From: an uncultured bacterium
GTDB lineage: Bacteria; SAR324; NAC60-12
Length of the DNA stretch: 18,857 nucleotides
Assembly: GCA_964010765.1 (NCBI GenBank)
Contig: CAXGMD010000068.1
Span: 1-18,857, forward strand
Direction: 5' to 3'
How positions within the stretch are numbered: the stretch's first letter is position 1; the number at the start of each line of letters is the position of its first letter. This document shows positions 1-18,857 of the stretch, one piece after another. The position numbers and the translations under genes are program-made. The notes under the pieces were generated by a model, which was given only the letters and a program-made list of their open reading frames with translations, was not told the origin of the DNA and ran no database searches.

Positions 1-2
1 TA

Positions 3-149
3 GATCGACACTACTATCGTGTGTTGCTCGATTCGATGGTTAACGATCTGTATGATCTGAAGCGAAAACAACTCAAACTGTTAAAAGAAGCTTGGTCAGC
101 CGCAGAAAATTCTGAGACCTCAAAACCAGACTGGAAAAGCCATATTTAA
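3..149 (+). CDS. 3' end of a hypothetical protein running in from the left edge (…DRHYYRVLLDSMVNDLYDLKRKQLKLLKEAWSAAENSETSKPDWKSHI*)
   Basis: Open frame from position 3 to TAA at 147-149, translated by hand; plausible helical composition; start lies outside the window. Confidence 0.5.
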   Translation, partial: DRHYYRVLLDSMVNDLYDLKRKQLKLLKEAWSAAENSETSKPDWKSHI

Positions 150-399
150 TCAGACCTGCCAGATTGCTTTTTGCTAACCTCAAGAGCACCTCCCTTCAAT
201 TAAACGAACTCTCGCAGATCAACCTAAAGCCCTACTTTTCATAACTAAATATTTCTTGTTTCCTGTTTCGGCCAACCCTTATTGTGGTCATTGTCCTCAA
301 TAGACTGGATGAATCTTAAAGGTACACTTCAATCAATAAGGTCCAAAGTGAGTTCGAAGTGAAGCTGAAATCAATGAGATCAAAAGAAAGGATCTACAA

Positions 400-726
400 A
401 TGCCTCAGAAGATGTCCTTGCTGGATGCTGTACCCAACTCAGGGGGGGACTTAGAAGAAGCAGCACTGCTTCATGCCTATGATCAAAGTTGGCAATTATA
501 CGCAAGAGCCTGTGATCTCAGACCAGTCTCGAGTATAAATGAAACTAGGCGCATAGATTTTGAGAATTCGAGAGACCGAGAGCAAGAGGATGAACGTAAA
601 AAAGACCTCTGGCACATGCTGCAATATTCTGCAGGATTTCAGCATCTGATTGCCTCAAAGAGTGAACAGGTTATTCCATTCGAATTCTTGAAAAGAACAG
701 CATTCAGACGACACCTCAGACGATAA
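400..726 (+). CDS. hypothetical protein (108 aa), possibly a decayed remnant
   Basis: ORF track; AAGGA precedes the ATG; no recognisable motif. Confidence 0.3.
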   Translation: MPQKMSLLDAVPNSGGDLEEAALLHAYDQSWQLYARACDLRPVSSINETRRIDFENSRDREQEDERKKDLWHMLQYSAGFQHLIASKSEQVIPFEFLKRTAFRRHLRR

Positions 727-2890: not shown

Positions 2891-2902
2891 AAAAAGTTTT
2901 TG

Positions 2903-3292
2903 TCAGCTTTGCGTGTAATCTTCACAACGGTGTAAGTCGGCTTTGGCAACAGCTTCATCTCTAAGTTTCATGTTTTTAGCTGAAGATGGCGCTGTCATTA
3001 AATTCAGAAATGCTTGGTGTGAGGGATACCAAATCCCCAAAACCTCATCGATATCTTGAGTGCCAACTACCTGTCCAAAAACTTCTGTCCTCCAGAGAAT
3101 CTTTCCACCAACTTCTTTTAGCAATTGCTGAAGAACTTTCATGTAGGCTTGATACAACTTTCCGGTTGGGTAATCAGCAACATCCCGATACTTGTTGAGA
3201 TTTAACATAAAAACAGCATCGTCTTGACTCCCGTGGGCAATCACTTTCATCTTTTCAATTTCGGTCAAATTGACACTTGGCAGTTCAGCCAT
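2903..3292 (-). CDS. DUF1330-like dimeric alpha+beta barrel protein (129 aa)
   Basis: 'VFMLNLNKYRDVADY', 'VGGKILW', 'DEVLGIWYPSHQAFLNL' match the DUF1330-related pattern; GAGG RBS. Confidence 0.85.
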   Translation of the reverse strand: MAELPSVNLTEIEKMKVIAHGSQDDAVFMLNLNKYRDVADYPTGKLYQAYMKVLQQLLKEVGGKILWRTEVFGQVVGTQDIDEVLGIWYPSHQAFLNLMTAPSSAKNMKLRDEAVAKADLHRCEDYTQS

Positions 3293-3401
3293 TTTTGCCT
3301 CTTGTAATTCTGGGGTGAATATGGTGTGTGATCCTTAGCATCTATGAGGGATTTGAAACTGGGAGGGATCCGGTTGGATGGGATCTCAGGTGTTTGGTGG
3401 A

Positions 3402-3659
3402 TTAAGAAATTTTCTCAAGCGCATAGACATCAGCAACAGCATTGTTTGCTGCATTCCATTCTTGAACCTTTGGTGATGACATGACGTTTTGGAGGCCTTC
3501 CATATCAGTCACATTCAACAGTCCAACTGCCGTATTGTCATTCATTTTTGTCACTTCCCACGCAGAAGTGTAGCGGCGCACATCATCTCCTACCTCCGCC
3601 AGCATTGCCGTAAACTCTTCGTAAGAACAATCAAACTTTGTCACGATACAAATATTCAT
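3402..3659 (-). CDS. small hypothetical protein (85 aa), likely alpha+beta barrel type
   Basis: ATG at 3659 (MNICIVTKFDCSYEEF…) preferred over the TTG at 3692, which lies inside a hairpin; 'VTDMEGLQNVMSSPKVQEWN'. Confidence 0.8.
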   Translation of the reverse strand: MNICIVTKFDCSYEEFTAMLAEVGDDVRRYTSAWEVTKMNDNTAVGLLNVTDMEGLQNVMSSPKVQEWNAANNAVADVYALEKIS

Positions 3660-3683
3660 AGAATTCTCTTGATCAGAGGATTG

Positions 3684-3706
3684 GGGATTCAATCGAATTG
3701 AATCCC
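3684..3706. terminator. perfect 10-bp intergenic hairpin
   Basis: GGGATTCAAT-CGA-ATTGAATCCC, 16 nt past the stop of 3723..4052; no U-tract, so it may be a stability element or operator instead. Confidence 0.4.
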
Positions 3707-3722
3707 GTTGAAGCAGTCGAGA

Positions 3723-4052
3723 TCATTTCAGAGGAGTCGCCCCTGTTTCTAGTCGAGTGACTTGGCCATCCCTGATCGTATGAACACTCATTAAAGCCTC
3801 CTTGCTTCCGTCTGGATACTCATTGAATTCGTGAGCAACCCCAATCTCATCATTTTCGTAAATCACCCTGAAGTCCTTGGTGATAACAGTTGGTGCACCG
3901 GGTTTGAACCAATCCCAACCAAGCATTTCTGCTTTGGTGACTTCCGTTCCACTTTGATGACGTACAAAAACAAAATCATCAGCCATCAATTTATCCAAAG
4001 TTTCCAAATCTTTTGCATTAAAAGCATCATGTAAATCTTTCATTAGTCCCAT
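3723..4052 (-). CDS. NTF2/SnoaL-like protein (109 aa)
   Basis: 'DAFNAKDLETLDKLMADDFVFVRHQ', 'RVIYENDEIGVAH', 'VHTIRDGQVTRLETGATP'. Confidence 0.88.
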   Translation of the reverse strand: MGLMKDLHDAFNAKDLETLDKLMADDFVFVRHQSGTEVTKAEMLGWDWFKPGAPTVITKDFRVIYENDEIGVAHEFNEYPDGSKEALMSVHTIRDGQVTRLETGATPLK

Positions 4053-4086
4053 TCTTACCTATCCCAGTTAGAGTATGAGATCCTAT

Positions 4087-4416
4087 TTATTGATTTGGCG
4101 CCTGATACGCAGAAACCACTTTGTTGGCAGTTTCCATTGCAGAGGTCATTGACTTGGAATCAATGATTTCGATCGCTTCAAAAGAGCTAAAGGTTCCAGT
4201 TGATGAAGTAACCATTTCAACAGCGGCCATGTTTTCTGCACTGCCTTCCATGATCGCCACGATCTCAGCACTGCTCACACTGAAGTAGAGGTTATGCATT
4301 TTAACATTGAGTGCAGAAAATAGTTTATTGGCAGCCTCCTCCCGATCTTGGGGGTTATCAACCATCCCCTTGAATGCCGCATTGCTATACTTTGCTCTCG
4401 CCAGATAAAGCGCCAT
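4087..4416 (-). CDS. GYD-domain protein (109 aa)
   Basis: 'YLARAKYSNAAFKGMVDNPQDREEAANKLFSALNVKMHNLYF' is the GYD-family N-terminus, although the GxYD signature itself is diverged; TAAGGAG RBS. Confidence 0.85.
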   Translation of the reverse strand: MALYLARAKYSNAAFKGMVDNPQDREEAANKLFSALNVKMHNLYFSVSSAEIVAIMEGSAENMAAVEMVTSSTGTFSSFEAIEIIDSKSMTSAMETANKVVSAYQAPNQ

Positions 4417-4572
4417 GATTTCTCCTTACTTTTGGGTATATGATTGTGATGCGAGTATGAACGCATCAATGAATGTAGTCCAAATAAATAGTCAGTAGAG
4501 GAAAATCTCAATAGGTTTCTTCAACCATCAGCAGGTTCCACAGAACCAAGTTCTGAGACTCAACGGGGTGGC

Positions 4573-4653
4573 TCAATCACACAACGCCTCACAGAGCACC
4601 CCATCCTTATCACCATCCAGTCGACTGAGTCCACATTGACTGAAATAATAGAC
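4573..4653 (-). pseudogene. isolated 3' remnant of an Excalibur Ca-binding-domain gene
   Basis: Hand translation VYYFSQCGLSRLDGDKDGVLCEALCD* matches the Excalibur CG…LDxDxDGxxCE motif; no start or upstream body. Confidence 0.8.
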
Positions 4654-5259
4654 GCCTGTACTAGTCTGCAATGGAAGGTTGATCAGACAGGATGAAGGTG
4701 ATTTCTGAAAAGTTCATGTAAGGGTCTTGGATATTGAAATTAATGGGTTGAGACTAATCAAAATTTGAGCAGTGAAACCTAAATTTTTGCAACGAGTCCT
4801 AAAATATGATCAACACTTCTAACAGTATCACTGGAGAATTGTCTGTAGATTCTGCAAGAATACTCTCTGTGTGTCTGAATTAAAATTTGAGTGATCGAAA
4901 TGAACTCACAAATTTCTTGTCGAACAAGCCTAATTTTACTAAAAGTGAAAGCAAGAAATTCATTATCAAAAAAAATTACTCCAAAATAAATTTTTATTGA
5001 TAATTCTTAATGGCCTCTTTTTCTAGGTAAGTGCACAAGCAATTGCAATTGGCTAATAAACTAAGGGTTCGTGATAAATTTTGTTATGCCTTACATCTGC
5101 CAAAATCAGTTTCCTTCGAAAAGTATGGAAATAATCGGTACCATATGACTGCAGTATGTTCATCAGCGTTAAATTGTCTTCACTACAGAAATTCGTCGAA
5201 TCACTGAGTCCTTTATCTCTGTAAAAAACTTATTTAATTAATTCAACCTAAAAAGATTT

Positions 5260-6072
5260 ATGAAAAATTTGGAACTGAAGAAAAAATTAAAAGAAGGTGA
5301 TTTAGTCTTGGGTACACTCATCATTTCAACATCACCTTTTTGGCCAAAAATCTTGAAAGATTGCTCACTAGACTTCATCTTTATTGACACTGAGCACATA
5401 GCTATAAGTCGTGAAACGCTATCTTGGATGTGTAGAACATATTCAGCAATGGGTCTTCCTCCCTTAGTGAGAATGAAATCTCCAGATCAGTATATTGCTA
5501 CTGAGTTTTTAGATGACGGGGCAGCAGGAATTATTTCACCGTATACCGAGACTGTCACTCAAGTCAAAGAATTGGTAGGTTCTACCAAAAAGAGACCGCT
5601 AAAGGGTGATAAATTAAACCAATTAATGGCAGGTACAAAAAACTTAGATGAATCACTAGATGATTATATTCATAAATTTAATGGGGACAATTTATTAGTA
5701 TTAAATATTGAGAGTGAACCTGCTGTAGAAAATCTTGACAAAATTTTAGATATTGAAGGCATTGATGCTATTCAAATTGGACCACATGACCTTACAACAA
5801 GTTTAGGAATTCCTGAGGAGTATGATAATCCCATTTACCTAAACACTATTGAGATAGTTTTCAAGAAAGCCAGATCAAAATCTGTTGGAGCAGGCATTCA
5901 TGCTTGGGGTACTCCTGAGTATCAAAAAAGATTACTGGACCTTGGTGCAAATATGCTAATCCACAAGGCAGATGCTCTCTTCTTTAGGGACGGATTAGAG
6001 AATGACCTTAATGAAATTAGGAGCTTAGTTGGTGAGAATAACGTCAGTAGAAGAGAGAATATTAGTATCTGA
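5260..6072 (+). CDS. HpcH/HpaI aldolase family protein (270 aa)
   Basis: 'DFIFIDTEH', 'PLVR', 'LDDGAAGIISPY', 'NIES', 'IGPHDLTTSLG'; visibly more AT-rich than its neighbours. Confidence 0.92.
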   Translation: MKNLELKKKLKEGDLVLGTLIISTSPFWPKILKDCSLDFIFIDTEHIAISRETLSWMCRTYSAMGLPPLVRMKSPDQYIATEFLDDGAAGIISPYTETVTQVKELVGSTKKRPLKGDKLNQLMAGTKNLDESLDDYIHKFNGDNLLVLNIESEPAVENLDKILDIEGIDAIQIGPHDLTTSLGIPEEYDNPIYLNTIEIVFKKARSKSVGAGIHAWGTPEYQKRLLDLGANMLIHKADALFFRDGLENDLNEIRSLVGENNVSRRENISI

Positions 6073-6333
6073 AAAAATATTATTTTTTTGAGTAAAATTT
6101 ATGATTTTATGCATCTGAGCAAATAAAAATGGTTACTTGATCCCACATAAATTGATAAGTGGGCGGTCTGCAACTAAAGATACGATAGAAAATCATATGT
6201 CTTGAAAAATACTTATTTGAACATAGATATATCAATATCGAATTTCTATAGAACAATTGAAAAATTCAATGGCCAACTTCCAATTTATATTGGCATCTCA
6301 ATGCACTTTCGCAAAGAGATCGGGGAACACACA

Positions 6334-6872
6334 ATGAGGACTACAACCAGATTGAAAATCTTGATTACACTGGCTGGGATCTTCTTTCTGGTATATTCAA
6401 ACAACTTGCTAGCTTGTCATGAATCTGATTTTGATGGAGAAGAACTTTTGGTGGGTACTTATTTGGAGGTCACACTGGAGACAATAAAATGGGAAGGGCT
6501 GTTTCGGTGAGAGAAAATATCAAAATATTGACCGGAAACATCACTCAGGCGACCACCATTACCTCCAATTACACGATTGATACTTTCGCGACAACTACAA
6601 ACTGCAACTGGCGTACTGCCAATATCCAGAAGTTCTTCAATGATAGTTACTGGCAGATCGCAGAAGAGAGTGCCCAAGGATCTGGAAGGCATCTGGAAGC
6701 ATTAGCCTCACTAACTGGATGTTCTGTTGACCAGCACGCCACCTTTGAGACTGTCATTCACCACAACCATGCATACATCTTTGCGTACAAAGACTACGAT
6801 GGTTCCATCAACAACTTCTTCACAGTCCTCAACACAGACAAAGATCTGAAGCAGTGTTTTGGACATTCGTAG
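6334..6872 (+). pseudogene. frameshifted secreted DUF3015-like protein
   Basis: The signal-peptide frame (MRTTTRLKILITLAGIFFLVYSNNLLA, ATG 6334) stops at 6510. The domain frame ('QIAEESAQGSGRHLEALASLTGC') is open from 6435 to 6872. A single frameshift between 6435 and ~6508 joins them. Confidence 0.7.
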
Positions 6873-6884
6873 GCATTACGCTGC

Positions 6885-7647
6885 TCAATCACTCAGCGCC
6901 TCACAAGGCAAACCCTCACCATCCCTATCTAGATTCTTCATCCCACACTAGGTTTGTAAAGCCTTGGCCTCATCACAAATAATCATCTTCTTGCAAGTAC
7001 CTCTTGGCGGAGCAATTCACTTGCGCCACGCGTAACTTGGTGCTGAATGGATTGATCGCACCACCACACTCCTCTGCCATCAGTGGCATCTCTGCATCAA
7101 CCCCCAGAATCACGCTGAGAGCAACAATTTCCTTGGCATCACCAGTCAAACCCCACTTCAGTTTCAAAGCCACCCAAGCTCTCGCATACTCTGCTTGATA
7201 TGATTGATTGGGAGGCAGCCAATCTGCTGGATCATCAGCGCCCTTCTGCCGGTTGAGGCCTCGATCCACGGCAATGAGGGTGTTCGGGTCACTCAGATCA
7301 TTGGCGTAGTCTCGCTTTCTTTAAGCATCCCAAGCAATCCCACCAGATTCATGTGCTTCCTTCAGAGGCACCATGTGATCAATGTCCAACTTACTGGCAT
7401 CCGTGATGGTTCTGCCAGAATACGGGTCATTTCCGCTTCCTGAGATCACTCGACAACCCTTTGAGGTCTTGAACCCAACCGTCGAGAAGGACTCCGCGAT
7501 CAGCAATTAATGACGAGCATTCTGGCAATCACGATCTTCGTCAATCCAGTGGCGGTAGCTCTTGCGGTCGTATTTTGGGCAAATAGCAGAATCCGCAAGA
7601 ACAGTTGTTGTCAGTAGTAGGAATAGTATTGTCAGTAGTGTCTGCAT
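6885..7647 (-). pseudogene. secreted DUF1524/HNH-type nuclease with C-terminal Excalibur domain, inactivated
   Basis: Signal peptide MQTLLTILFLLLTTTVLA, then 'HWIDEDRDCQNARH*', 'DPYSG', 'LDIDHMVPLKEAH', 'DA*RKRDYAND', 'NRQKGADDPADWLPPN'. In-frame TAA stops at 7507-7509 and 7321-7323. A frameshift near 6996 leads into 'CKKMIICDEAKALQT*CGMKNLDRDGEGLPCEALSD*'. Confidence 0.9.
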
Positions 7648-8027
7648 TATTTGTAGTCTTCCCAGTTCCAGTCTTGGCCTTCGCTGGGGTCGTAGTCTAG
7701 TTCTCTACCATCAGTTTTCTGAGTAAATATTTTTCCATCTTTGTACGTGGCCTGAGTAGTAGCACAGCGGTATATCTCATAATCTTTGAATCGGCTGTAA
7801 ACTCTGATGGTCAGATTCTCCTCACTTTCAGACACGACTTCATAGGCACCAAGAACAATGGAATCACTAAGTGTTGAAACCACAACTTTATCGTCATTCA
7901 GATTGGATTTGATACCTGTCGTATGATCGATAGTTGAATATTCAGGATGATAAATTTCATCCACCAGTTAGAAATACCTTTTGAATCCAAGACGCCAAGC
8001 TTTCTCGTAGGCCTCTGCTCTAGTCAT
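7647..8027 (-). pseudogene. SnoaL/NTF2-like protein gene with one in-frame stop
   Basis: AAGGAG RBS and ATG at 8027 give MTRAEAYEKAWRLGFKRYF*LVDEIYHPEY…DPSEGQDWNWEDYK*. The TAA at codon 20 is in frame; the final stop overlaps the next ATG (TAATG at 7649-7645). Confidence 0.8.
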
Positions 8028-8031
8028 TTTC

Positions 8032-8092
8032 TCTCCTTATGCTGGTATCCGTGATTTGATTTCTGCGAAGAAATACCCCACCGACTGCTTGC
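8032..8092 (-). repeat. 61-bp dispersed direct repeat, copy A
   Basis: Ungapped hand alignment: 52/61 identical to copy C and 48/61 to copy B; ends in TAAGGAGA just before ATG 8027. Confidence 0.9.
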
Positions 8093-8101
8093 CTGCTCTA
8101 A

Positions 8102-8140
8102 TTATTCCCACAAACTTTGGATGATTTTCATTTGATTAAC
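8102..8140 (-). pseudogene. 3' remnant of a paralog of the 10438..10833 gene
   Basis: Translates VNQMKIIQSLWE* versus FNQMKVMQSLWD*, at the same distance from the 61-bp repeat. Confidence 0.8.
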
Positions 8141-8253
8141 TGGAACTTCATTGGACCGGCTGGTGTTGTCCTATTCCGCAAGTCTCTGCGGGAATCCTTT
8201 TTCGTGACAAAAGATCTCAAGCCCATAGCTGTTCATGATTTCATCAGCCGTAA

Positions 8254-8300
8254 TAGGACGTCATTTAGGACCTACTGTGTGACGTCATCTTAGGACATCA
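8254..8300. repeat. four phased 10-bp direct repeats (consensus TAGGACRTCA)
   Basis: TAGGACGTCA 8254, TAGGACCTAC 8266, TGTGACGTCA 8278, TAGGACATCA 8291; spacing 12/12/13 bp. Confidence 0.75.
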
Positions 8301-8426
8301 CTGGAAATTGGTTTGACTCAAGCTATCCAATATTCTTAAGTGATTGAGGTATGTTTTAGTTTTTTTACAAGAAATTTTCCGTAAACCGTGTACCAGCATA
8401 CTCAACAGCCAAACGAAATTTAACGT

Positions 8427-10274
8427 ATGAAATTGAACATGATCTCAAAGCAAATCAGCCCTCTGATCATTCTCATATTACTTGCTAGCTTTCAATGGTC
8501 TTGTAGTGGAGGTGGTGGAGGCGAAAAGACCGAAAATCTGTCCTTGCAAGTCACAATTTCTTACCCTAGAGATAACTCATCTGTGGTTGGAACCGCAGTT
8601 TACTCCCTGAAATTCAGTGAAGCTGTAACTGGGTTGACGGGCAACAATCTTAATGCTGCTTGTGAAGGTAGTATCCAATTGAGTTCCGATAATGGTGAAA
8701 TTTGCTATCCAATCTCGATCAATAGTGCAGACAATATCAGCTGGACAGTTGATCCGGTGGGGGAACTCAGTGATGGTGCCTACAGCCTAACAGTGACCAC
8801 TGGCATCCAAAATCTCTCCGCTATCTCCCCTGTCAGTCCAACTAGCGTGACCTTCAACGTCAAGGATGCCCTCTCAACTATTGCCAACCAGCTGGAATTA
8901 GATCTCATAAAAGCTGATCTCTCTAAAGATCTTGCTGAGGCTGCAAAAGCTGGTGCACGAACTGCGGCTGGTAGTGAAACAAATGATCTACTCAATGTGA
9001 TTCCAGCAGCCTTTGATGGTGCTTTCGATGCGGTTGCTGCGGCTGGACTGAACGAAACCCTCACGCAGGCCGCCCTCAGCACCATCATTGAGTCCCTGCT
9101 ATCCAATGTGGCCGGCCAAGCATCACTGGTCAATGACAACTCTGCCGCACGTGTTGCCGTTCTGCCCGCAAACTTCTCAAGCTTGTTGAAGAGCCTAACA
9201 ACTAGAGTTGCGACAAAATCTGCTGGCAACAGCACGACTCTGCAAACATTGGCCACGGCACTGGTCAGTAGTCTTCCTGCAGCTGGAGCAACGGCAACTG
9301 AAATCGAGACTACCTATGTCAGAACTATTGTGCAGACGACAACTACGATAGTCATGACCAAGAACACAGATAAAATGACTAGGGACAGCGTATTGGTTGG
9401 ACTCGGGGCTGGTGTAATTGCTGGGGCCAAGAGAATTACAGAAATGACGGTTAATGTGGATACGATTCAAACGACAACTACTGAATCAATGACAGCAGCT
9501 GCAAACAGCAGTGACGCAACCTATGATGTCAGCACAGTTACCACTGCGATGGTGTCAGTAGTCAACTCCGAAACGCTAACCAGTTGCTCTTTGAACGGTC
9601 AAACAGTTGCTCACGGGAGTACGATAACAGCCTATCAAGCACTCTCGGTGGATTTTGGAAATACTTGTACCAGTGAAACCCGAAGTTGTTTCAATGGAAC
9701 ACTGAGTGGAGCCTACACCAATACAAGCTGTACAGTAGCGGCCGCAGCCAGTTGCTCTTTGAACGGTCAAACAGTTGCTCACGGGAGTACGGTAACAGCC
9801 TATCAAGCACTCTCGGTGGATTTTGGAAATACTTGTACCGGAGAAACCCGAAGTTGTTTCAATGGTAATTTGTCCGGCAGCTATACCTACACTAACTGTA
9901 CGGTAAGCGCTGCCAGCCAATCATCATCGGATTACAGCGCAGATGGGACCACATTTAAAATCACTGTGAGCTCATCCGGCTATTATTCGAACAAATATTA
10001 TGTAGACAGCGTACAAACTAAGTCGTTGAATTTGAAGAAAGGCTTTACCTATTATTTTAACGTCGATGATTCTTCAACAAACAGTCACCCTTTGTTTATT
10101 GGGACATCATCAGGGGGAGGAAATTATGTCAACGAGTATTCATCAGGAATTACGAATAGCCGTGCTACAAATGGTATTTTGAGTTTTACTGTGCCTACCG
10201 ATGCACCTTCCACCCTTTATTACAATTGTGGTCTTCATTCCAACATGGGAGCAGAAATCTCAATTGTTGACTAA
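8427..10274 (+). CDS. surface lipoprotein (615 aa): Ig-like domain, Ala/Thr-rich helical region, two Cys-rich repeats, C-terminal cupredoxin-like domain
   Basis: Hydrophobic signal plus 'WSC-SGGGGG' lipobox-like site; 'LKFSEAV…VDPVGELSDGAYSLTVTTGIQNL' resembles Big_5; 'SHPLFI…LYYNCGLHSNMG' gives an H/C/H/M spacing like a type-1 copper site. Confidence 0.9.
   Translation: MKLNMISKQISPLIILILLASFQWSCSGGGGGEKTENLSLQVTISYPRDNSSVVGTAVYSLKFSEAVTGLTGNNLNAACEGSIQLSSDNGEICYPISINSADNISWTVDPVGELSDGAYSLTVTTGIQNLSAISPVSPTSVTFNVKDALSTIANQLELDLIKADLSKDLAEAAKAGARTAAGSETNDLLNVIPAAFDGAFDAVAAAGLNETLTQAALSTIIESLLSNVAGQASLVNDNSAARVAVLPANFSSLLKSLTTRVATKSAGNSTTLQTLATALVSSLPAAGATATEIETTYVRTIVQTTTTIVMTKNTDKMTRDSVLVGLGAGVIAGAKRITEMTVNVDTIQTTTTESMTAAANSSDATYDVSTVTTAMVSVVNSETLTSCSLNGQTVAHGSTITAYQALSVDFGNTCTSETRSCFNGTLSGAYTNTSCTVAAAASCSLNGQTVAHGSTVTAYQALSVDFGNTCTGETRSCFNGNLSGSYTYTNCTVSAASQSSSDYSADGTTFKITVSSSGYYSNKYYVDSVQTKSLNLKKGFTYYFNVDDSSTNSHPLFIGTSSGGGNYVNEYSSGITNSRATNGILSFTVPTDAPSTLYYNCGLHSNMGAEISIVD
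9580..9915 (+). repeat. intragenic tandem duplication, 2 x 168 bp (56 aa, 4 Cys each)
   Basis: CCAGTTGCTCTTTGAACGGTCAAACAGTTGCTCACGGGAGTACG starts at 9580 and 9748; nearly identical over the first ~115 bp, more diverged after. Confidence 0.95.
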
Positions 10275-10367
10275 ATTATATTGCTTGTGCTGGAAAATGC
10301 TTTGGAAGATGAAGTGCTTTCAGAAAAGCCTGATGCCGTAAAGCATTTTTCAACTTTGGTCATTTTC

Positions 10368-10428
10368 TCTCCTCATGCTGTTGTCCTTGCCTTGATTCCT
10401 GCAATGGTATACCCAACCAACTGCTTGC
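10368..10428 (-). repeat. 61-bp dispersed direct repeat, copy B
   Basis: 49/61 identical to copy C; begins 9 nt after the stop of 10438..10833; ends TGAGGAGA followed by GAAAATGACC. Confidence 0.9.
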
Positions 10429-10437
10429 CTGTCCTGA

Positions 10438-10833
10438 TTAATCCCAAAGGCTCTGCATTACCTTCATTTGGTTGAAACACACCCACTCCAAGTTATATGT
10501 TTGAACCATTGACCAGAGTTCTTCAGCAATTTCTTTAGTTTCGATCCAGTGATGGTGAAGTCCATCCTCAGTTTCGTAGACTTCAAACAAGTTAAATATC
10601 GTCCTTCCTGTTTTTTTTGGGTACTTCCCATCAAAAAACTCACTGAACCCAGCGTATTCTGGACTCTCAGAAACAACATACTGAACCAACTTTAGAGGGC
10701 CTTCACGATAACTTTTATTTTTCATGAATTCGTAGTGACCTTCGAAAAAAATCCTTAACGCTTCGACGGCACTTTCATTTGGTGCAATCCAAGTAATAGA
10801 GGCAGTTGACTTCCCTTTGAGTTCATTTGCCAT
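10438..10833 (-). CDS. hypothetical protein (131 aa), likely dimeric alpha+beta barrel fold
   Basis: AAGGAG RBS supplied by repeat copy C; 'IFNLFEVYETEDGLHHHW' resembles the ABM-type ExYxxxxxxxxH motif. Confidence 0.85.
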   Translation of the reverse strand: MANELKGKSTASITWIAPNESAVEALRIFFEGHYEFMKNKSYREGPLKLVQYVVSESPEYAGFSEFFDGKYPKKTGRTIFNLFEVYETEDGLHHHWIETKEIAEELWSMVQTYNLEWVCFNQMKVMQSLWD

Positions 10834-10840
10834 AGCTAGT

Positions 10841-10901
10841 TCTCCTTATGCTGCTATCCGTGATTTGATTGCTGTGTTGGTATAGCCCACCAACTGCTTG
10901 C
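10841..10901 (-). repeat. 61-bp dispersed direct repeat, copy C
   Basis: Minus strand GCAAGCAGTTGGTGGGCTATACCAACACAGCAATCAAATCACGGATAGCAGCATAAGGAGA. Confidence 0.9.
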
Positions 10902-11379
10902 AATACGCTCCAAAATCTACTTCCCCCCACCGCCCTCCAAGCTTATCTGGTTGGCTGACATAATTGGAAGCACAAACACGCTGCTTTCGTCAACCAATCC
11001 CAAAGAGGCACCATGCAGTTTGGACAAACTGATAACACCAACCTAATTATTGGACTCTGGACAATTTGCATTGTTGGAGTCTGTGTTTCATTAGCAGTCC
11101 TAGAAACAGTCATGCAAGTGCCGGCTGTTCAGTAACCAGAGTTTCGAATCTGAATCCAGCTGGGGTCAAGCCATTCTCTGGATATGATTCCATTCAGGGC
11201 ATGGCTATCGGATTCAGAGAGGCATTTCTATCGTTCTTTGTAGGCTTGGCGACTTCGTTATTTCTCAGAGCTTATGCTGAACATCTGAAGAGAAAAGAAT
11301 TGGCCAAGGGACCAGCGGAGGTTGAGATTCCTACTTCCTGAAGAAACAGTTCGTTGTGTAACTGTGCTGCAAAGAGTTA

Positions 11380-11440
11380 CTGTCAGTTGACGGGCAGTTG
11401 AGGAAAGGAAAGTGGCGCTACTGGCAGTTGCTGTCAGTTG
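11380..11440. repeat. two pairs of 10-bp direct repeats CKGKCAGTTG, integrase arm-type-site-like
   Basis: CTGTCAGTTG 11380, CGGGCAGTTG 11391, CTGGCAGTTG 11421, CTGTCAGTTG 11431; 60-120 bp from the tRNA fragment. Confidence 0.8.
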
Positions 11441-11502
11441 AAATAAGTAGTTTTAGAGGAAATGATCAAGGCCGCAAGTAGTTGAATTTACTAGCGAAGG
11501 TA

Positions 11503-11547
11503 TGGTGGCGGGGGCAGGATTTGAACCTGCGACCTTCGGGTTATGAG
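11503..11547 (-). mobile_element. att core: 3' 45 nt of an initiator tRNA-Met(CAT) gene, not a complete tRNA
   Basis: Minus strand CTCATAACCCGAAGGTCGCAGGTTCAAATCCTGCCCCCGCCACCA covers the anticodon loop, T-arm, acceptor 3' strand and CCA of tRNA-fMet. Upstream sequence (…TTTTTACACAGTA) has no D-arm or 5' acceptor strand. Confidence 0.93.
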
Positions 11548-11721
11548 TACTGTGTAAAAATCAATTTACTTCAGTATTAATACGGCCTTGAAGGAAGTGG
11601 GGCTAGTTCACGGTGAGTTGAGGAAGATCCTGACACCTGACCGAGCAAGTTTCGAGAAGTTTCCTCAGGCAGGTTGACATACGGTAGTGTTGGGATTGAT
11701 CAAAACAATGTCCATGTTCCG

Positions 11722-13239
11722 TTACTCCATTCCCTTTCCGACGCTGTCGCCGACCCATCGATTAATGCCCAAGTCCTGCGCCGCTGCCTTTAGATACATC
11801 TGTCTGTAGGCGGGATGCCATTCCTCGGCTTCAGCTGCCGCGGCACGCAGCCCGGCCCGACGATCATTTGCCAGCTGACGGGATTCTTCTCGGATTGTTC
11901 TTTCATCCATTGTTTGAACGCGGCCACCCGAGAACACGATCCGACCGTCGATCATGGTGAGCCGAACCGAACTTCCATTCTCGCAATAGACGAGTTGACG
12001 ATGAATGTCGTTTAACGGTGTGAAAGCGAGTGTATCAAGATCGATCAGGCAGAGGTCCGCCGTTTGGCCCGGCGCAATGGCGCCAACATTGTCGGACCGC
12101 ATGGCGCGGTGACCGCCCAAAATCAGGCAGTCGAGCACCTCAAGCGCTGTCGGCCATGTCTCATAGTCAGGATCAGCAATGTTGTGGATGAGCCCCGTCA
12201 TCTTGGCGACTGCCCACATATTCACAGCATCATCTGCGATCGCTTCATCCGTGCCGAGCGCAATCGGAATTCCTTGGTCGCGGATGGCGCGAAACCGCAT
12301 GACGCCACTACCCAGGCGGAGGTTACTGATAGGATTGTGCGCAATTACGGCGCCAGCGCGGGCGATCCTGTCCAAATCCTCATCATCGACCCACACCGCG
12401 TGGATAACATTTGTCCGCTCCGTCAAGATACCGAGATCGTCGGCTAGTACGACCAAGGACCGGCCACTCAAGGTATCTACACCAAGTGCCCGTTGGACCT
12501 TGGTCTCGAGGATATGAACATAGAACGGAAGGTCATGGGTTCGTGACAAATTTTCCAAAGCCTGGGCATAAGTGGGCGTGACACGCTGTGGTGCCGAGCA
12601 GGATACGGCAGCGCGGATACGTCCGCCCGCCGCACCATGCCAACGGGAAATCAGGTGTTCATACATCTCCAACAATTGTTCAGAACCGACTTTCGGTTTC
12701 ACCGCCAGGCGACGGCGTTGGTTGTCATTCATGATCTGGTCGAGAAAGGGCAGCTTATCGGCTTCCGCCACGTCCGATTGGTCCAGCGCCACGCGGGCCC
12801 GAAGCCCGCTGTCTTCATAGGCTTGCAGGACAGCGTCAATGATGGCCGGCTCTGGGTACGGAACAAAAAAGGCGTCGTCCTGGACGGCCGTGACTCCGTT
12901 GCGGATCATTTCGAGGCATGCCAGCAACGTCCGCACGTAGGCTTCTCGCGGCGTCGGCCGCAACGCTTCGTTGGCCGGGGATTCGTAGAGCATGAACAGT
13001 TCCAGTGGCAGGCTGGGCAATGCTCCCTTCATGTGGTTCACCGGTGAATGGAAATGCGCATTGACCAAGCCAGGCATAACCAGCATGCCGGCGGCATCGA
13101 TCACATCAGCATCAGCAACTCCTGACAACAGGCCAACACTGACAATGCGCCCGTTTTCGATCAAAACGTCTTCCGGTTCTGGTTCTTCTGAGGTCTCCTC
13201 CCCTCTCCAGATCCATCCATTTTTAATCAGCGTTCGCAT
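11722..13239 (-). CDS. metal-dependent amidohydrolase, AtzA/TrzA/SAH-deaminase-like (505 aa)
   Basis: 'MPGLVNAHFH', 'VHILET', 'IHAVW', 'HNPISNLRLGSG', 'LGTD'. Confidence 0.93.
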   Translation of the reverse strand: MRTLIKNGWIWRGEETSEEPEPEDVLIENGRIVSVGLLSGVADADVIDAAGMLVMPGLVNAHFHSPVNHMKGALPSLPLELFMLYESPANEALRPTPREAYVRTLLACLEMIRNGVTAVQDDAFFVPYPEPAIIDAVLQAYEDSGLRARVALDQSDVAEADKLPFLDQIMNDNQRRRLAVKPKVGSEQLLEMYEHLISRWHGAAGGRIRAAVSCSAPQRVTPTYAQALENLSRTHDLPFYVHILETKVQRALGVDTLSGRSLVVLADDLGILTERTNVIHAVWVDDEDLDRIARAGAVIAHNPISNLRLGSGVMRFRAIRDQGIPIALGTDEAIADDAVNMWAVAKMTGLIHNIADPDYETWPTALEVLDCLILGGHRAMRSDNVGAIAPGQTADLCLIDLDTLAFTPLNDIHRQLVYCENGSSVRLTMIDGRIVFSGGRVQTMDERTIREESRQLANDRRAGLRAAAAEAEEWHPAYRQMYLKAAAQDLGINRWVGDSVGKGME

Positions 13240-13278
13240 CAGTTCAGCGCTCCACTGGAAAGTCGAAGTTCGAATTCT

Positions 13279-14820
13279 TTAGAGGCGTGACGAACTTGGA
13301 TAAAACGGGGCACGTTCTATTTCTCCATCAAGATAGTTTTCGTAAAACGCTTCCACACTCTCGAAGACCTGCTCCCTCAAATCCCTTCGAGACTGTTCCT
13401 CGTCACTTAGCGGCTTTGAAAGCTCCCGGGATATCGTGTCCAGAATTTCTTCACGACTGACGCCCATGAATTCACCGTCCTGATAGACGATCGTACCATC
13501 GACCATGACGCAATGGACATCCTTGGACTTCGCCCTGTAAATAAGGGCGTCGAGAGGGGCAATATCGGGACTTTGATATGGGAAGGTGGCACTATTGTAA
13601 TCAATAACGACAGCATCCAGCTTTCGGCCAGGATCCAAACGCCCGATCTCCGTTCCGAACGCCGTTGTCCGCCCACCGTGTTCCGTCGCCATACGCATAA
13701 TTTGGGCAGGGTTTGGTACGGCGCTGTGGTCCATCCCGGGGACCCTGTGCACGGTTAAGGCCATCCGCATTTCCTGAAGCATGTCCCGGTCTTCATTAAT
13801 ACCTGCTTCATCAATGCCGAGTCCGACAGTCACGCCCCTTTTTTCCAATTCCATCAAAGGCAGCAGGCCACTGCGAAGCCGGAAATTGGAAGAGCAGTTA
13901 TGGCATACACAGGTACCTGTAGCGGCCACCATCTCAATATCTTCTTCGGTCATCCAAACCCCGTGACCCAAGGTCAGGGATGGGCCGAGAAGCCCAAGTT
14001 TTTCGAGATGCTTTACGGCCGTCGTCCCAGTTCTTTTCCGGGCATATTCCTTCTGGTACGCCGTTTCCAATAGGTGCATGTGCATGGGCATTCCGGACGC
14101 ATCCGAGCGCTCTTTCATAGCGAGCAGCCCCTCATCCGTCATCCAATGCAGATTTGCGGGAGCCAACTGAATACGGGCCCGTGGATTTTCGTTGGCTTCC
14201 GTCAGGTCCTCGAACAACTGCATGAACTCAGCTAAAGAGAGATTTTGTCGAGACAGATGTGCGGCCATCGCCTTGCCAGCTGCGGGCGGTAACCTCTTGC
14301 AGAATTCCTCATCGGCTTCATAAACAAAACGATTTTGTTCTCGCACCGCGTAGCAATAGGAAACTCGCATGCCAACAGCCCGATAGGCCGCCAATACCCC
14401 CATTGCAGATGCCTTGACTTCCTCATAGTCGCCAACTGCCCAGCCCTGAATGTGCTGAACGGTCGTGATGCCGGAAGAAATCATCTCAAATGCTGAGTAG
14501 AGCGTATCGAGATACGGATCAACGCTCCGAAAGGAAAGCCGCGCGGCAAACCACAGTTCCAGGGCATAGTCCGGAGCGCCCAACTGCAGAGGCGTCAGGC
14601 CGATATGATGGTGACTGTTCACCAATCCCGGCAAGATAAGGTGATGAGGGTATGCGGTTTCAGGAGCCCCCGGGTAATCTCGGCGCATGTCCTCCAGTGA
14701 GCCGATGGCGAGAATGACTCCATCTTCATGTGCCAAGGCGGCGTTTTTATGAATATCAGGGACATTTTCGGTGGTCGTGCCCGTCACAATCCAACGTGCA
14801 CTCAGCAAAGAAACCGTCAT
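13279..14820 (-). CDS. metal-dependent amidohydrolase, same superfamily (513 aa)
   Basis: 'LPGLVNSHHH', 'MHLLET', 'GHGVW', 'HNCSSNFRLRSG', 'LGID'; ATGA overlap with the upstream ATPase gene. Confidence 0.93.
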   Translation of the reverse strand: MTVSLLSARWIVTGTTTENVPDIHKNAALAHEDGVILAIGSLEDMRRDYPGAPETAYPHHLILPGLVNSHHHIGLTPLQLGAPDYALELWFAARLSFRSVDPYLDTLYSAFEMISSGITTVQHIQGWAVGDYEEVKASAMGVLAAYRAVGMRVSYCYAVREQNRFVYEADEEFCKRLPPAAGKAMAAHLSRQNLSLAEFMQLFEDLTEANENPRARIQLAPANLHWMTDEGLLAMKERSDASGMPMHMHLLETAYQKEYARKRTGTTAVKHLEKLGLLGPSLTLGHGVWMTEEDIEMVAATGTCVCHNCSSNFRLRSGLLPLMELEKRGVTVGLGIDEAGINEDRDMLQEMRMALTVHRVPGMDHSAVPNPAQIMRMATEHGGRTTAFGTEIGRLDPGRKLDAVVIDYNSATFPYQSPDIAPLDALIYRAKSKDVHCVMVDGTIVYQDGEFMGVSREEILDTISRELSKPLSDEEQSRRDLREQVFESVEAFYENYLDGEIERAPFYPSSSRL

Positions 14821-15599
14821 AGTCGTTCTTGCTCCTCAAAGGCTTTATCGACTTCCTCGGCGAGCAGCGCATCGCATCGCTTGGCAAGTTCAATCATTTC
14901 TGGGGAATGAGGATCACGTGGCCTCGGTCTGTCGATTTGAATTTCGGCCTTAATGCGCCCGGGACGTGCAGAGAAAACGACGACCCTGTCCGCTAACGCT
15001 AGGGCTTCGTCGATTGAATGGGTCACCAGCAAAACCGAGGCGCCGGATTCCTTCCAAATACTCAACAAATGGTTCTGCATCCGTGCTCGGGTCTGAATAT
15101 CTAGCGCCGCGAACGGCTCATCCATAAGCAAAACCTTGGGCCGCATCGCGAGGGCCCGAGCGAGAGCGGCTCTTTGGCGCATGCCGCCAGAGAGTTCATG
15201 AGGACGACGCTCCCCGGCGCCGGCCAAGCCGACCTGTCGCAATAATTCTTCAGCGCGTTTTTCACGAGTGACCCGCGGCGTATTGTTGACTTTCAGGCCG
15301 AAGGTGATGTTGTCACGCACCGACAGCCACGGAAACAGTGATGCTTCTTGAAAAATCAAACAGCGCTCAGGTGATGGGGCGGTAATTTCTAGCGCATCGA
15401 ATTTAACGGCACCGGCAGTCGCTTCTTCCAATCCCGCCACGATATAAAGCAACGAGCTTTTGCCACAACCGGACGGACCTAGCAGGACAACAAACTCACC
15501 TAACGCGACTTCCAGTGAGAGATTCGATATTGCATGAACCGGCTCAGGCCCCTCCGGATTCCAGGTTTTCGAAACATTCTTAATGGACAACCCCATCAT
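14817..15599 (-). CDS. NitT/TauT-family ABC transporter ATP-binding protein
   Basis: Walker A GPSGCGKS, signature LSGGMRQR, Walker B LLMDEPF, VTH. Start moved to ATG 15599 (MMGLSIKNVSK), just after the permease stop. Confidence 0.95.
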   Translation of the reverse strand: MMGLSIKNVSKTWNPEGPEPVHAISNLSLEVALGEFVVLLGPSGCGKSSLLYIVAGLEEATAGAVKFDALEITAPSPERCLIFQEASLFPWLSVRDNITFGLKVNNTPRVTREKRAEELLRQVGLAGAGERRPHELSGGMRQRAALARALAMRPKVLLMDEPFAALDIQTRARMQNHLLSIWKESGASVLLVTHSIDEALALADRVVVFSARPGRIKAEIQIDRPRPRDPHSPEMIELAKRCDALLAEEVDKAFEEQERL

Positions 15600-15603
15600 G
15601 ATT

Positions 15604-16509
15604 TTAAAGTCCCTGCAAGTTGGTTGGGCCCACCCACCAGAGAACGCGCTTCTGGATTTGGCGTAGTGCCTGATCAAAAGCAAAACCGGTGATGCCGATG
15701 AGCGTCATTGTAAAAAAGACAAGGCTCGCATTAAATGTATTTCGAGCCATCATCGTCACTTGGCCAAGGCCGGAACCGACCCCTACGGCTTCGGCGATAA
15801 GCACCACCATCCAGGCAGCAAAAAGGTTCATCCGCAGCGTGACGAACAGGTCGGGAAGAATCGTCGGCAGGATCACATGTCTGTATATTTGTTGTTTGGA
15901 GCAGCCCATGATCCGGGCAAGTTGAATATACTGCACCGGGACACTGTCTATCTGCGACAACGTCGCGAGTACCATGACGAAGAAGATCGCGATGAAGACG
16001 AGAAAAATGGCCGGCGGATTGCCGATACCGAGAATGAAAACTGCAACTGGGATCCATGCAACGGGCGAAATCGGTGCCAACATGGTGACGAGGGGAAGAA
16101 CCAATTTTCCGAAGATATTGAAATAGCGGATGGCTAATCCAATTGCGAGCGACAAACTAAATCCGAGAGCTAAACCGACGAAAACACGTAAGGAAGACCA
16201 GCCGATTACCCCGAGCACCGACCAAATACTTCCGCCTTTACTCAGCGCACCTGCCCGTGACCCATCCGGATCGAAGAACCGAAACTGATCGGACAAGTCA
16301 GCTAAAAAGATATGCGGTGGCGGCAGCAAAAGTGGATTGGCCCACCCTTGCCACCACGCAAATTCCCAAAAGCCAACAAACAAGGTTAGCGACATACATG
16401 CCCAAAAAATTGGGGCAAGTTTTCGATAGACACGCGTGAGTAGGGCAAGGGGAAGGGCAACCTGCATCGAATGAGGTTGCAAATCTCCGCGAATGTTCTT
16501 TTGACTCAT
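15604..16509 (-). CDS. NitT/TauT-family ABC transporter permease (301 aa)
   Basis: Multiple TM segments; 'PISPVAWIP', EAA-loop region 'LARIMGCSKQQIYRHVILP', 'WMVVLIAE', 'GLG'. Confidence 0.95.
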   Translation of the reverse strand: MSQKNIRGDLQPHSMQVALPLALLTRVYRKLAPIFWACMSLTLFVGFWEFAWWQGWANPLLLPPPHIFLADLSDQFRFFDPDGSRAGALSKGGSIWSVLGVIGWSSLRVFVGLALGFSLSLAIGLAIRYFNIFGKLVLPLVTMLAPISPVAWIPVAVFILGIGNPPAIFLVFIAIFFVMVLATLSQIDSVPVQYIQLARIMGCSKQQIYRHVILPTILPDLFVTLRMNLFAAWMVVLIAEAVGVGSGLGQVTMMARNTFNASLVFFTMTLIGITGFAFDQALRQIQKRVLWWVGPTNLQGL

Positions 16510-16525
16510 GGGAATATGGCCCTCG

Positions 16526-17593
16526 TTAGGCAGTCTTTAATTTCAGATCACCGTAAAGGTCCGAATTTTCTGCAATAACGGCTTCCAGAAGCGTCCAATC
16601 GACGGCGTCATCTGGAAGAGGGTTCTTGACGTAACCCATGGCCTGCATCGATTTGGCGCGTTCCTTAAAGAAATTGGTATTCAAACGCTGGTCGATCATC
16701 ACCGGCTGGCGCGATTGGGCAAGGGTCAGAGCCTCAAGCGAGGTCTTGTAATAAATGCCCACAGTGTCCGCGAGTGCTGAAGCTAAATCCTGTTCGGATT
16801 GAAGCTGCGCTTTCATCATCGCTTTAATGACCGCCTTCACGGCATCTGGATTTTCTTCCAGCAACGGTGTGCGGGCGGCGAGGACGCAATCCGAATACCC
16901 CTTACCATAGAGGTCGAGTCCGTCTGTTAGAATTTGCGAACCCTTACGCTCTGTCAAACACTGTGTGGCATAAGGTTCGATGTGACTGACGCCATCGATC
17001 GCACCGTTGATGAAGCCAGCGGCCAATTCTGGAGACGAATTAAAGTATTTGACATCAACGTCGGCGAACGACATGCCGGCTTTTGTCAAGTAATCGTAGG
17101 GAAGAACTTCCAATGTGTCAGCCTGGAAGGTCCCAATGCTTTTTCCCTTCAGATCAGTTGGCTTTTCGATGCCCTCGCCACCGATGAAGATACAACCTTC
17201 CACACCTGCGCCAGCCACAAGCTTCACCGGGGCACCCTGATCAACAAGGGTTATGAAGTTCGAATAGGGGATGACGGAAATATCAACCATTCCGGCACCG
17301 AATAGAGTAACAACGTCTGTGGTCGTTGGCGTGACCACGAAGTCAAGTTCGACATTGTCTTCGGCGGCAAGGTTGCGTTCTTTTGCGAGGAAAATGCCCA
17401 AATTGCACAAGCCAGCACCGTGCGTCGCCTTCAGGGTGGTCATGCCCGCTGCTTCGGCAACTCCAGACCCAATCACGCTGGCAAGCGACGAAGGAATAGC
17501 CAAAGCGGCCGCTGCCAATGCGGAACTTTTAAGAAAGCCCCGTCGCGAAGCTTTCATTATGTTTTGATAATTTCGTCCACGATTATCGCACAT
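16526..17593 (-). CDS. NitT/TauT-family ABC substrate-binding protein with Tat signal (355 aa)
   Basis: Twin-arginine motif SRRGFLK, AEA cleavage site; 'DLKGKSIG', 'GAIDG…IEPY'; AGGAG RBS. Confidence 0.93.
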   Translation of the reverse strand: MCDNRGRNYQNIMKASRRGFLKSSALAAAALAIPSSLASVIGSGVAEAAGMTTLKATHGAGLCNLGIFLAKERNLAAEDNVELDFVVTPTTTDVVTLFGAGMVDISVIPYSNFITLVDQGAPVKLVAGAGVEGCIFIGGEGIEKPTDLKGKSIGTFQADTLEVLPYDYLTKAGMSFADVDVKYFNSSPELAAGFINGAIDGVSHIEPYATQCLTERKGSQILTDGLDLYGKGYSDCVLAARTPLLEENPDAVKAVIKAMMKAQLQSEQDLASALADTVGIYYKTSLEALTLAQSRQPVMIDQRLNTNFFKERAKSMQAMGYVKNPLPDDAVDWTLLEAVIAENSDLYGDLKLKTA

Positions 17594-18003
17594 GTCTGTC
17601 TCCTATTATTACGACCTAAAACGACATGTACGGTACGTTAGTAGTAGTGTACGAATTACCGAAATGTCGCATTAGGACAGTTGCGGCACGCCAACCTATA
17701 AGAAGGACAATGATTAGGAACAAAGCCTTTCTTGCGCTACAACGCTACAAGACAAATTACATGCCAGAGAAAATACCCTCCTAACTTGTTGTTTTCTCAG
17801 AATATAATTCCCTTAGAAAAGCGCGTTCAAAAGCGATCTTTGCTTAATTAATCGGCGTTTGCACAAAAACTCGACAGTCGCAATTTCTGACGCCTTTGGA
17901 GCATACCCGGTCAACACGAAGAACGCATTGCCACCTCTGCATTCTGCTCAGAAAGCCGACATTCCCTGGAATTCTTCAATTAGGCAGGTTCTGGCTAGAA
18001 TTC

Positions 18004-18052
18004 TCCGTGTTTCGAAGGGGCGGAAAATAGCCGCTCCGCCCCCCGCAACGGA
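18004..18052. repeat. GC-rich imperfect inverted repeat next to a gene-truncation point
   Basis: GGGGCGGA(18017-24)-N10-TCCGCCCC(18035-42), with outer TCCGT/ACGGA. Confidence 0.7.
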
Positions 18053-18060
18053 CATATCAG

Positions 18061-18315
18061 TGGGGTTGCCAGATCAAAGACTGCATCTGAAGCCGCTGCG
18101 ATATCAATCAAGTCCGTGATATCTTTGTAGGATTCCAAGTCCCACTTTTTGGCGGTTTTTTTTAAGTTGTCAGAGTTGATATCGTGAATTCCCAAGACAG
18201 GGAATTTAGCGATTTGATAGGCTGGCAAGTGAGCGTCATTGACAATGCCCCCGTCGCCAATCAAAACAATTGGGCGCGGGTCGCTTGGTAAATCCCATTG
18301 ATAGCCAAGTCTCAT
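18061..18315 (-). pseudogene. truncated Gfo/Idh/MocA oxidoreductase (N-terminal ~85 aa only)
   Basis: 'IVLIGDGGIVNDAHLPAY…GIHDIN…VFDLATP', then unrelated sequence to a stop at 17995; the family's (E/Q)KP motif and C-terminal domain are absent. Confidence 0.85.
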
Positions 18316-18441
18316 GATTCCTCAGAGTTTTTGGTTTTTCTAAGAAAATTTTTCGTCTGTTTTCAGGCTTTGATGGCCCTTCACCTTCGTAACTTCCGCT
18401 GCATCCTTGAACAAATCGGAATTCATCCGCTTTAGTGATTC

Positions 18442-18855
18442 CTAATGCATCTCCCATTCAGTCACCCCCAGTTCTATTTTGGGCAAGTTGGGCCTGTCAA
18501 AGTGATTGAATTTATCGTGACCACGAACCAGCAGGGCAAAGGTACGACCCCTGTTTTGCTTGACATGAGTCGGGATTAAACGCATAGCAAAACCAATTCT
18601 CGGAGTATTTGTGGGGTTGGGTTTTGAACCATGAAAGATACGGACATGATGAAGGCTCATTTGGCCAGCTTCCAATTTTATGGCCTCTGTTTTTTCACGA
18701 GAAATATCCACAGCAACCTCTTGCCCACGGCTGAGCATATTATCATCCCCAAAAGTATCGTGATGAGACACTTGGCCTCTGAGGTGGCTTCCTGGGGCAA
18801 CCTCCATGCAGCCATTCTCTAGATTGCTGGGGGTAAGGGCTAACCAAGCGGTGAC
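18442..18855 (-). CDS. phytanoyl-CoA dioxygenase (PhyH)-family Fe(II)/2OG enzyme, 3' part; possibly prematurely stopped
   Basis: 'VTAWLALTPSNLENGCMEVAPGSH', 'DNMLSRGQ', 'LEAGQMSLHHVRIFHGSKPN…RIG'; the frame runs off the right edge. Confidence 0.9.
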   Translation of the reverse strand, partial: VTAWLALTPSNLENGCMEVAPGSHLRGQVSHHDTFGDDNMLSRGQEVAVDISREKTEAIKLEAGQMSLHHVRIFHGSKPNPTNTPRIGFAMRLIPTHVKQNRGRTFALLVRGHDKFNHFDRPNLPKIELGVTEWEMH

Positions 18856-18857
18856 AA

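Follow-up and report, generated by a model that had tools for sequence, protein, structure and literature searches.

A probable fossil attP-like joint at an initiator tRNA-Met fragment in a SAR324 genome

Positions 10841-11681 of the window, the 18,857-nt stretch analysed here, are very probably a fossil P-core-P' (attP-like) joint derived from tyrosine-integrase elements in the initiator tRNA-Met gene of a SAR324 bacterium. The window is the entire contig C68 of a 3.86-Mb genome in 266 contigs (92% complete). A fragment of tRNA-fMet forms the core of the joint, with a family-A P' arm (D_A) on its left and a family-A integrase-side arm (U_A) on its right. An earlier note had described the site as an attP-like joint between tandem elements. 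This description is supported by the same repeat on both arms, by a right arm that is the 3' end of an integrase gene, and by the mixed arms found in relatives.

The tRNA-fMet core and its two arms

The core (11503..11547, minus strand) is a 45-nt 3' fragment of tRNA-fMet running from the anticodon loop to CCA. All 45 of its bases (45/45) are identical to C122:8218-8262, the 3' part of the intact tRNA-Met(CAT) gene of the same genome (C122:8186-8262). The match begins with the 7-nt anticodon loop, at its first base, and runs to the terminal CCA; the preceding bases differ, which confirms the earlier reading that tRNA identity begins exactly at the loop. The same starting point holds for every fragment whose upstream arm is readable and whose first loop base is unchanged. 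The crossover in the window is thus placed at a recognised tRNA sublocation, the anticodon loop; Williams is said to have worked on tRNA sublocations in 2002. Bacterial initiator tRNAs are marked by an anticodon stem with three G-C pairs and by positions 1 and 72 that do not pair. Both features, as well as a CAU anticodon, are seen in the sequence and fold of the C122 tRNA, where the G-C pairs close the stem, and from these two features we take it to be the initiator tRNA.

No tRNA was called in the window by ARAGORN. The intact gene had been expected to the right of position 18857, but the window is the whole of contig C68 and the gene lies at the end of another contig. The last base of C122 is that of the tRNA and of the core; the gene and the fragment are on separate contigs. 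No island-free (empty) tRNA-fMet site was found in any relative examined. On G001:C10 an intact tRNA is followed by unrelated GC-rich sequence without a homologue in the genome of the window, and on G002:C534 a decayed core is followed by more mosaic sequence. The tRNA on G001:C10 (1486-1562, locus L043) is a full 77-nt tRNA-fMet with a few substitutions that ARAGORN leaves uncalled.

The phage lambda attP consists of a P arm, a core and a P' arm, with arm-type sites that are bound by the N-terminal domain of Int. Left of the core, at 11380..11440 (plus strand), the window has four exact copies of CKGKCAGTTG, starting at 11380, 11391, 11421 and 11431 and arranged in two pairs 62-125 nt from the core. 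The chance expectation is 0.15 copies, and four were reached in none of 200 shuffles. When one mismatch was allowed, 10 matches were found against 3.9 expected, including a right-hand copy at 11611. Pairs of the motif no more than 25 nt apart occur three times in the 3.86-Mb genome, always at this site (control, 0). The degenerate right-arm repeat (11611-11620) has the same orientation as the left copies; the 21-nt stretch around it (11605-11625) is 86% identical to 11385-11405, and an 11-nt unit, AAGTGGSGCTA, is common to both arms. A repeat in one orientation on both arms and distant from the core, here four copies on the left and one degenerate copy on the right, is the arrangement of a lambda-type attP. 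The CAGTTG-type repeats are putative arm-type sites for the N-terminal domain of the integrase.

The four left repeats and the related copy on the right had been pointed out in the earlier note, and the exact matches, the low expectation and the 86% identity over 21 nt support them. The imperfect inverted pair that it saw flanking the core can be aligned but is a weak one: of 18 columns, 14 match, 2 are mismatches and 2 are gaps. It was not listed in our repeat search. That search gave a perfect 9-nt inverted repeat around the core (11466-11474 and 11583-11591), which is largely kept in the arms of relatives.

The P' arm region D_A (10841..11502, ~660 nt) is conserved in several copies within the genus, which were found by a DNA search of 40 relatives, after which the loci were fetched. 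Copies with 74-95% identity lie beside a core on four contigs of G002 (C631, C434, C379 and C478) and on G006:C175. The four repeats are recognisable in all seven aligned copies from relatives (7/7). Six of the seven have at most one changed base per repeat, and L031, at 74% identity, retains two exact repeats. The core next to these aligned copies is present in five cases, decayed in L031 and missing in L033. The left region, taken in the earlier note for a second and older element, does begin with the P' arm of an element; its supposed greater age is not supported, and a core identical at 45/45 positions gives no age.

Apart from one small ORF, D_A is essentially non-coding, with substitutions spread evenly across codon positions. 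A 91-aa ORF (11066-11341) was considered as a gene of the element and rejected, being disrupted in the copies of relatives and without codon-position bias. The small ORF (11013..11135, plus strand) encodes a hydrophobic product of 40 aa and has conserved copies: it is intact in seven of nine aligned copies (L030 has a premature stop and L031 is degenerate), and its substitutions favour third codon positions. No Pfam family above threshold was found for it, and an atlas search gave nothing usable. It could encode a small membrane peptide, and the suggestion of a type I toxin-like role is a guess. The ORF has a good ribosome-binding site and lies within a module of ~255 nt (10920-11175) that also occurs away from att sites, on C168 and C27 of the same genome and on G008:C95 and G003:C207. 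An Rfam scan of 10200-11800 with E values up to 1 gave a single sub-threshold hit, CRISPR-DR33 at 10317-10353 (21.8 bits against a cut-off of 39).

The P arm on the right (11574..11681, minus strand) is a stump of an A-type integrase gene, its last 34 codons and stop, and contains the degenerate repeat at 11611-11620. The whole right arm (11548-11681) matches G006:C175, G005:C334, G002:C338 and a locus in a public MAG (L068), and all four matches are the 3' end of a tyrosine integrase gene reading towards the core. The stump shares 76% identity with the C-terminus of the G006:C175 integrase and can be aligned with integrase-gene 3' ends in L051, L027 and L068. Similarity to integrase genes ends at ~11682, just before the catalytic Tyr codon. 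The family-A integrase gene abuts the att site in relatives and is reduced to the stump in the window. The right-arm repeat of the relatives L027, L032, L051 and L068 is a perfect CTGTCAGTTG, with CTGGCAGTTG in one L068 unit, and is doubled in three of the four (1-2 perfect CTGKCAGTTG copies).

By the earlier note, an integrase was to be sought on the right flank. The window holds the 34-codon stump only: a search with PF00589 gave no hit in the 23 ORFs of the window, nor on C68 in a genome-wide scan. Moreover, every readable genomic copy of the A integrase is damaged. The gene on G002:C338 has one frameshift after residue ~62, the one on G006:C175 has one frameshift, L068 is split into three pieces, and stumps are left in the window and on G002:C534; at a sixth A site, G005:C334, the contig stops within the arm. 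The family-A integrase is lambda-Int-like, with three domains. Its full-length form of 392 aa was found in public data, in three clusters with 84-96% identity to the query from G002:C338, and has Phage_integrase and SAM-like domains. An exhaustive search at E <= 1e-10 returned 192 representatives, mostly of 370-400 aa and with 25-37% identity.

An AlphaFold model of the 392-aa integrase, built from 50 of the 192 representatives, has a pLDDT of 91.6 and places a three-strand sheet and a helix at the N-terminus, ahead of the core-binding domain. Only full-length lambda Int chains align to it from model residues 1-6: 1z1b_A (Z 19.1) aligns over model residues 6-377 and chain residues 14-356, and 5j0n_G over model residues 1-379. 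With chains that lack the arm-binding domain, the alignment begins at model residues 75-80. Sequence identity between lambda Int and the family-A integrase is 12-15%. The predicted N-terminal domain fits repeats acting as putative arm-type sites.

Families A and B around one core

Arms of a second type, B, each bear two copies of the repeat GGTTGGGTA. The B integrase has 383 aa, is intact on G002:C379 and G005:C153, and reads away from the core; in the genome of the window it was found only as pieces, on six contigs. Neither an A nor a B integrase was found intact in the genome (92% complete); without one supplied in trans, the joint is therefore likely to be inactive. Of the contigs of the genome, searched for a continuation of C122, none has a D arm at its start, and a D_B arm is present on C206 alone. 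That contig bears a degenerate attP-like site of type B (C206:457-1900), where a decayed 36-nt tRNA-fMet fragment (89%) has a frameshifted and truncated integrase gene on one side and the D_B arm on the other.

A census of cores in nine genomes of the genus, with up to three mismatches allowed and G006:C175 (five mismatches) added, gave 18 cores in seven genomes: six intact tRNAs and 12 fragments. Three of the intact tRNAs are followed by D_B, one (G008:C295) by only 10 D_B-like nt, one by unrelated sequence, and one by the contig end. The fragments comprise two with U_A/D_A arms (the window and G006:C175), two with U_A/D_B, two with U_B/D_A, three with another upstream arm and D_B, and three that have lost one arm at a contig end. 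G002 has seven of the fragments and G005 three. In G006:C175, from an independent assembly, the order is U_A-core-D_A as in the window, and the integrase is frameshifted. The free assortment of A and B arms around one core is what tandem accretion at a single tRNA gene predicts. Under such accretion, A and B elements would insert into the anticodon loop of the tRNA gene, or into an att site already there. In the resulting pile-up each internal joint would read P(element n)-core-P'(element n+1), and the joint in the window would lie between two A-type elements. At a later stage, a 6.4-kb operon of alphaproteobacterial type would have replaced most of the integrase gene and part of the neighbouring oxidoreductase gene.

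The arms and the census also bear on a simpler reading of the site as an attR, in which a single island ends in the right block, the displaced 3' end of the tRNA gene makes up the fragment, and the left block is the original chromosomal flank. Such a reading would suit the single fragment in the window and the integrase stump, which lies upstream of the fragment in tRNA-sense orientation. However, the supposed flank bears four copies of the integrase-side repeat and is found in at least four diverged copies (74-95%) in G002, each beside a core, while three intact tRNAs of relatives, where the sequence is readable, precede a different arm, D_B. We consider a simple attR extremely unlikely.

A joint of the form P-core-P' with arms of one family is, by definition, also the arrangement of a true attP, and the contig could then be part of an episomal or excised circular element and not of an integrated array. 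This is highly improbable, given an integrase gene reduced to 34 codons and a left contig end that carries the remnant of a different, B-type element. There is no overlap between the two contig ends, each of which falls in a module that is also present on other contigs of the genome or the genus. The same broken configuration was moreover found in metagenomes of several studies dated 2013-2024.

For the U_A-core-D_A join in this genome the evidence is the original assembly. None of the public contigs compared spans the whole core, and short-word public contigs cannot do so because the 45-nt core is shared with all tRNA-fMet genes. This absence, together with the end of C122 exactly at the last base of the core, is what would be seen if the assembly were chimeric at the 45-nt repeat and the true joins were tRNA-core-D_A and U_A-core-something else. 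An independent assembly (G006:C175, 85% identity) nevertheless has the same U_A-core-D_A order, and in seven contigs of G002 and G005 a core is flanked on both sides by at least ~100 nt, with varied arm pairings. A chimera is thus very unlikely, and even a mis-joined contig would leave both arms as att arms of family A. The joint between two A-type elements is the reading retained here. In this reading C68 would be linked, through a putative array, to the tRNA gene on C122.

We further considered that tRNA-fMet might anchor one very long accretion array, with three to eight att cores over tens of kb. As at least two lambda-type integrase families share the 45-nt core, any joint could recombine with any other, and intact 392-aa integrases that still circulate in the population could shuffle or cis-mobilise decayed blocks, the operon included. 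This extension is speculative and, in our estimate, rather unlikely; if true, the array would be a modular platform for gene exchange and a main flexible region of the SAR324 genus.

The blocks on either side of the joint

GC content is 42.5% left of the joint and 52.1% right of it, against 46.4% for the genome. The rise across the site that the earlier note had seen is therefore real, but its boundary is at ~11682, at the integrase stump and 135 nt to the right of the core, and not at the core. The right block had been interpreted as an island. It is not bounded by the core and is mostly a five-gene GC-rich operon of 6.4 kb (11683..18057, minus strand; Pfam and NCBIfam hits), which encodes an NMT1/SsuA-like binding protein, a permease, an ATPase and two TRZ/ATZ-type amidohydrolases. 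Beyond it, 18058..18857 (minus strand) holds a GFO/MocA oxidoreductase gene that is truncated and, cut by the contig end, the 3' part of a gene for a PhyH dioxygenase. This segment is 79-92% identical to intact PhyH-GFO modules on C238 of the same genome, G003:C269 and G005:C18, and the similarity stops at ~18058. The breakpoints of the operon, as set by integrase genes on the left (~11682) and by PhyH-GFO modules on the right (~18058), thus fall in two genes that are both truncated, and the GC step would be there because the operon replaced most of the integrase gene and part of the oxidoreductase gene. Two 91%-identical copies of the PhyH-GFO module are present in the genome, at 18058-18857 and C238:1-798. 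C68 and C238 end at the same point within the PhyH gene, as expected if the sequence beyond it is an unresolved repeat.

The joint between integrase and operon at 11682 is bridged by contigs from all four independent runs (4/4), which come from four studies and show 0-1 differences, and it is therefore not an artefact of assembly. No DNA match to 11682-14800 was found in 40 relatives, and none to the operon among the matches listed for eight genomes of the genus (the 27 weakest are outside the list). The best 80 public loci for one of the amidohydrolases are mostly from Rhodobacteraceae and other Alphaproteobacteria, with up to 74% identity. None of these 80 is a SAR324 locus by its record title, in a search from which the genome of the window may have been excluded. 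The gene order of the operon is kept in loci of Rhodobacteraceae, Paracoccus, a Rhizobiales record and SAR116, at 55-84% amino-acid identity. Transporter and amidohydrolase are in the same order in seven of the nine loci checked, and the second amidohydrolase comes next in six. By these sequence affinities the operon is foreign, of alphaproteobacterial type, and its affinities point to a recent transfer across phyla. That its substrate is an N-heterocycle is a guess.

The left end of the window (1..680, plus strand) is a remnant of a B-type element, made up of the upstream region and the first ~93 codons of a gene for a protein of 260-284 aa that in relatives directly follows the B-type integrase gene. 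It is 86-89% identical to G002:C379, G005:C153 and G007:C61. On the first two of these contigs the intact 383-aa integrase gene separates the homologue from another core, ~1.7 kb away, which hints that a further core may once have lain beyond the left end of C68. Between this remnant and D_A, positions 681-10840 form a mosaic whose modules are found piecemeal in relatives, differently ordered and often present more than once. For example, G002:C631 lacks 8093-10840 of the window, and its homologue of the gene at 7647-7964 abuts the P' arm.

An integron was tried as an explanation of the left block and rejected. The A integrase scores 23.4 bits against the integrase_gron model (cut-off 265) and is not IntI, on neither strand do the ~115-nt repeats (8023-8137 and 10359-10473) fold better than shuffled sequences (z between -0.98 and +0.61), and several gene spacings are only 12-34 nt. 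Similarly, an integron-like capture of small gene units by the P' platform is nearly excluded, as neither IntI nor hairpin repeats were found.

Several other features of the left block were recorded. A repeat of ~60-115 nt at 8023-8137, 10359-10473 and 10841-10901 precedes three different minus-strand ORFs and carries a ribosome-binding site and an ATG; it recurs in relatives, and module boundaries fall at its edge. The gene of a 615-aa secreted protein (8427-10274) contains a direct repeat of 118 nt (9580-9697 and 9748-9865, 97%) that encodes a duplicated Cys-rich segment. A gene for a UmuD-like S24 peptidase (2450-2890, minus strand; NCBIfam 146.6 bits, cut-off 110) has no adjoining umuC and has paralogues with 78% identity on C66 of the same genome and in several relatives.

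Relation to known systems

The type of scar and the way in which such elements work are already known and are unchanged by this joint, in which the integrase gene is almost wholly deleted. The joint would account for the contig break and the GC step in the genome of an abundant, uncultured lineage of the deep ocean, and it would mark tRNA-fMet as a hot spot of strain-level variation in gene content in SAR324. It would also date the transfer of the roseobacter-type transporter/amidohydrolase operon into this hot spot. For annotation, an att fragment with repeats on both sides suggests an internal joint of an array and not the end of an island, and a shift in composition close to an att site can have its boundary elsewhere. 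In the portion available of a long-read study, SAR324 MAGs have the highest density of structural variants in the data set (PMC12379486). The site does not appear in that portion, and no tRNA-linked SAR324 islands are named in the titles or abstract openings of the papers found on SAR324, integrases and tRNA.

The phage lambda attP resembles the joint in having repeats of the same orientation on both arms, here at 60-125 nt from the core. The modelled family-A integrase likewise aligns over its full length, N-terminal domain included, only with full-length lambda Int. Unlike in lambda, the core is a 45-nt tRNA segment (15 bp in lambda) and the integrase gene runs into the P arm with its 3' end; neither Xis nor IHF sites were identified.

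The islands mapped by Islander have a tDNA and its displaced fragment as their boundaries (Hudson, Lau and Williams 2015; PMC4383910, available sections). As described there for tandem islands, a tyrosine integrase would have targeted a tDNA with a crossover in the anticodon loop, and a displaced 3' fragment marks the end; here the fragment matches the 3' part of an intact tDNA in the same genome (45/45). The anticodon-loop site class (A) accounts for 2083 of the 3919 islands given in those sections, which also count 125 tandem arrays of two or more islands and four of three or more (PMC4383910), whereas G002 alone has seven fragments. In contrast to Islander islands, the tDNA is here on another contig of a fragmented assembly. 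The integrase that Islander looks for is absent from the window, and by the Islander rule the window would not be called a tandem array, since no array member in it retains an integrase.

A further likeness is to the accretion of incoming elements onto decayed, integrase-less ones, with chimeric internal att sites, as described in the accessible part of PMC5704250. Unlike the ICESt1/ICESt3-type systems, the window comes from an uncultured marine SAR324 host, and no conjugation or mobilisation genes were seen here. Like the ICESt1/ICESt3-type CIMEs and the composite island at tRNA-Lys of S. agalactiae treated in that part, the site has decayed elements that keep their att sites (PMC5704250). 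As in the CIME-type accretion described there, the internal joint is a hybrid, with arms from two elements that sometimes belong to unrelated integrase families (PMC5704250).
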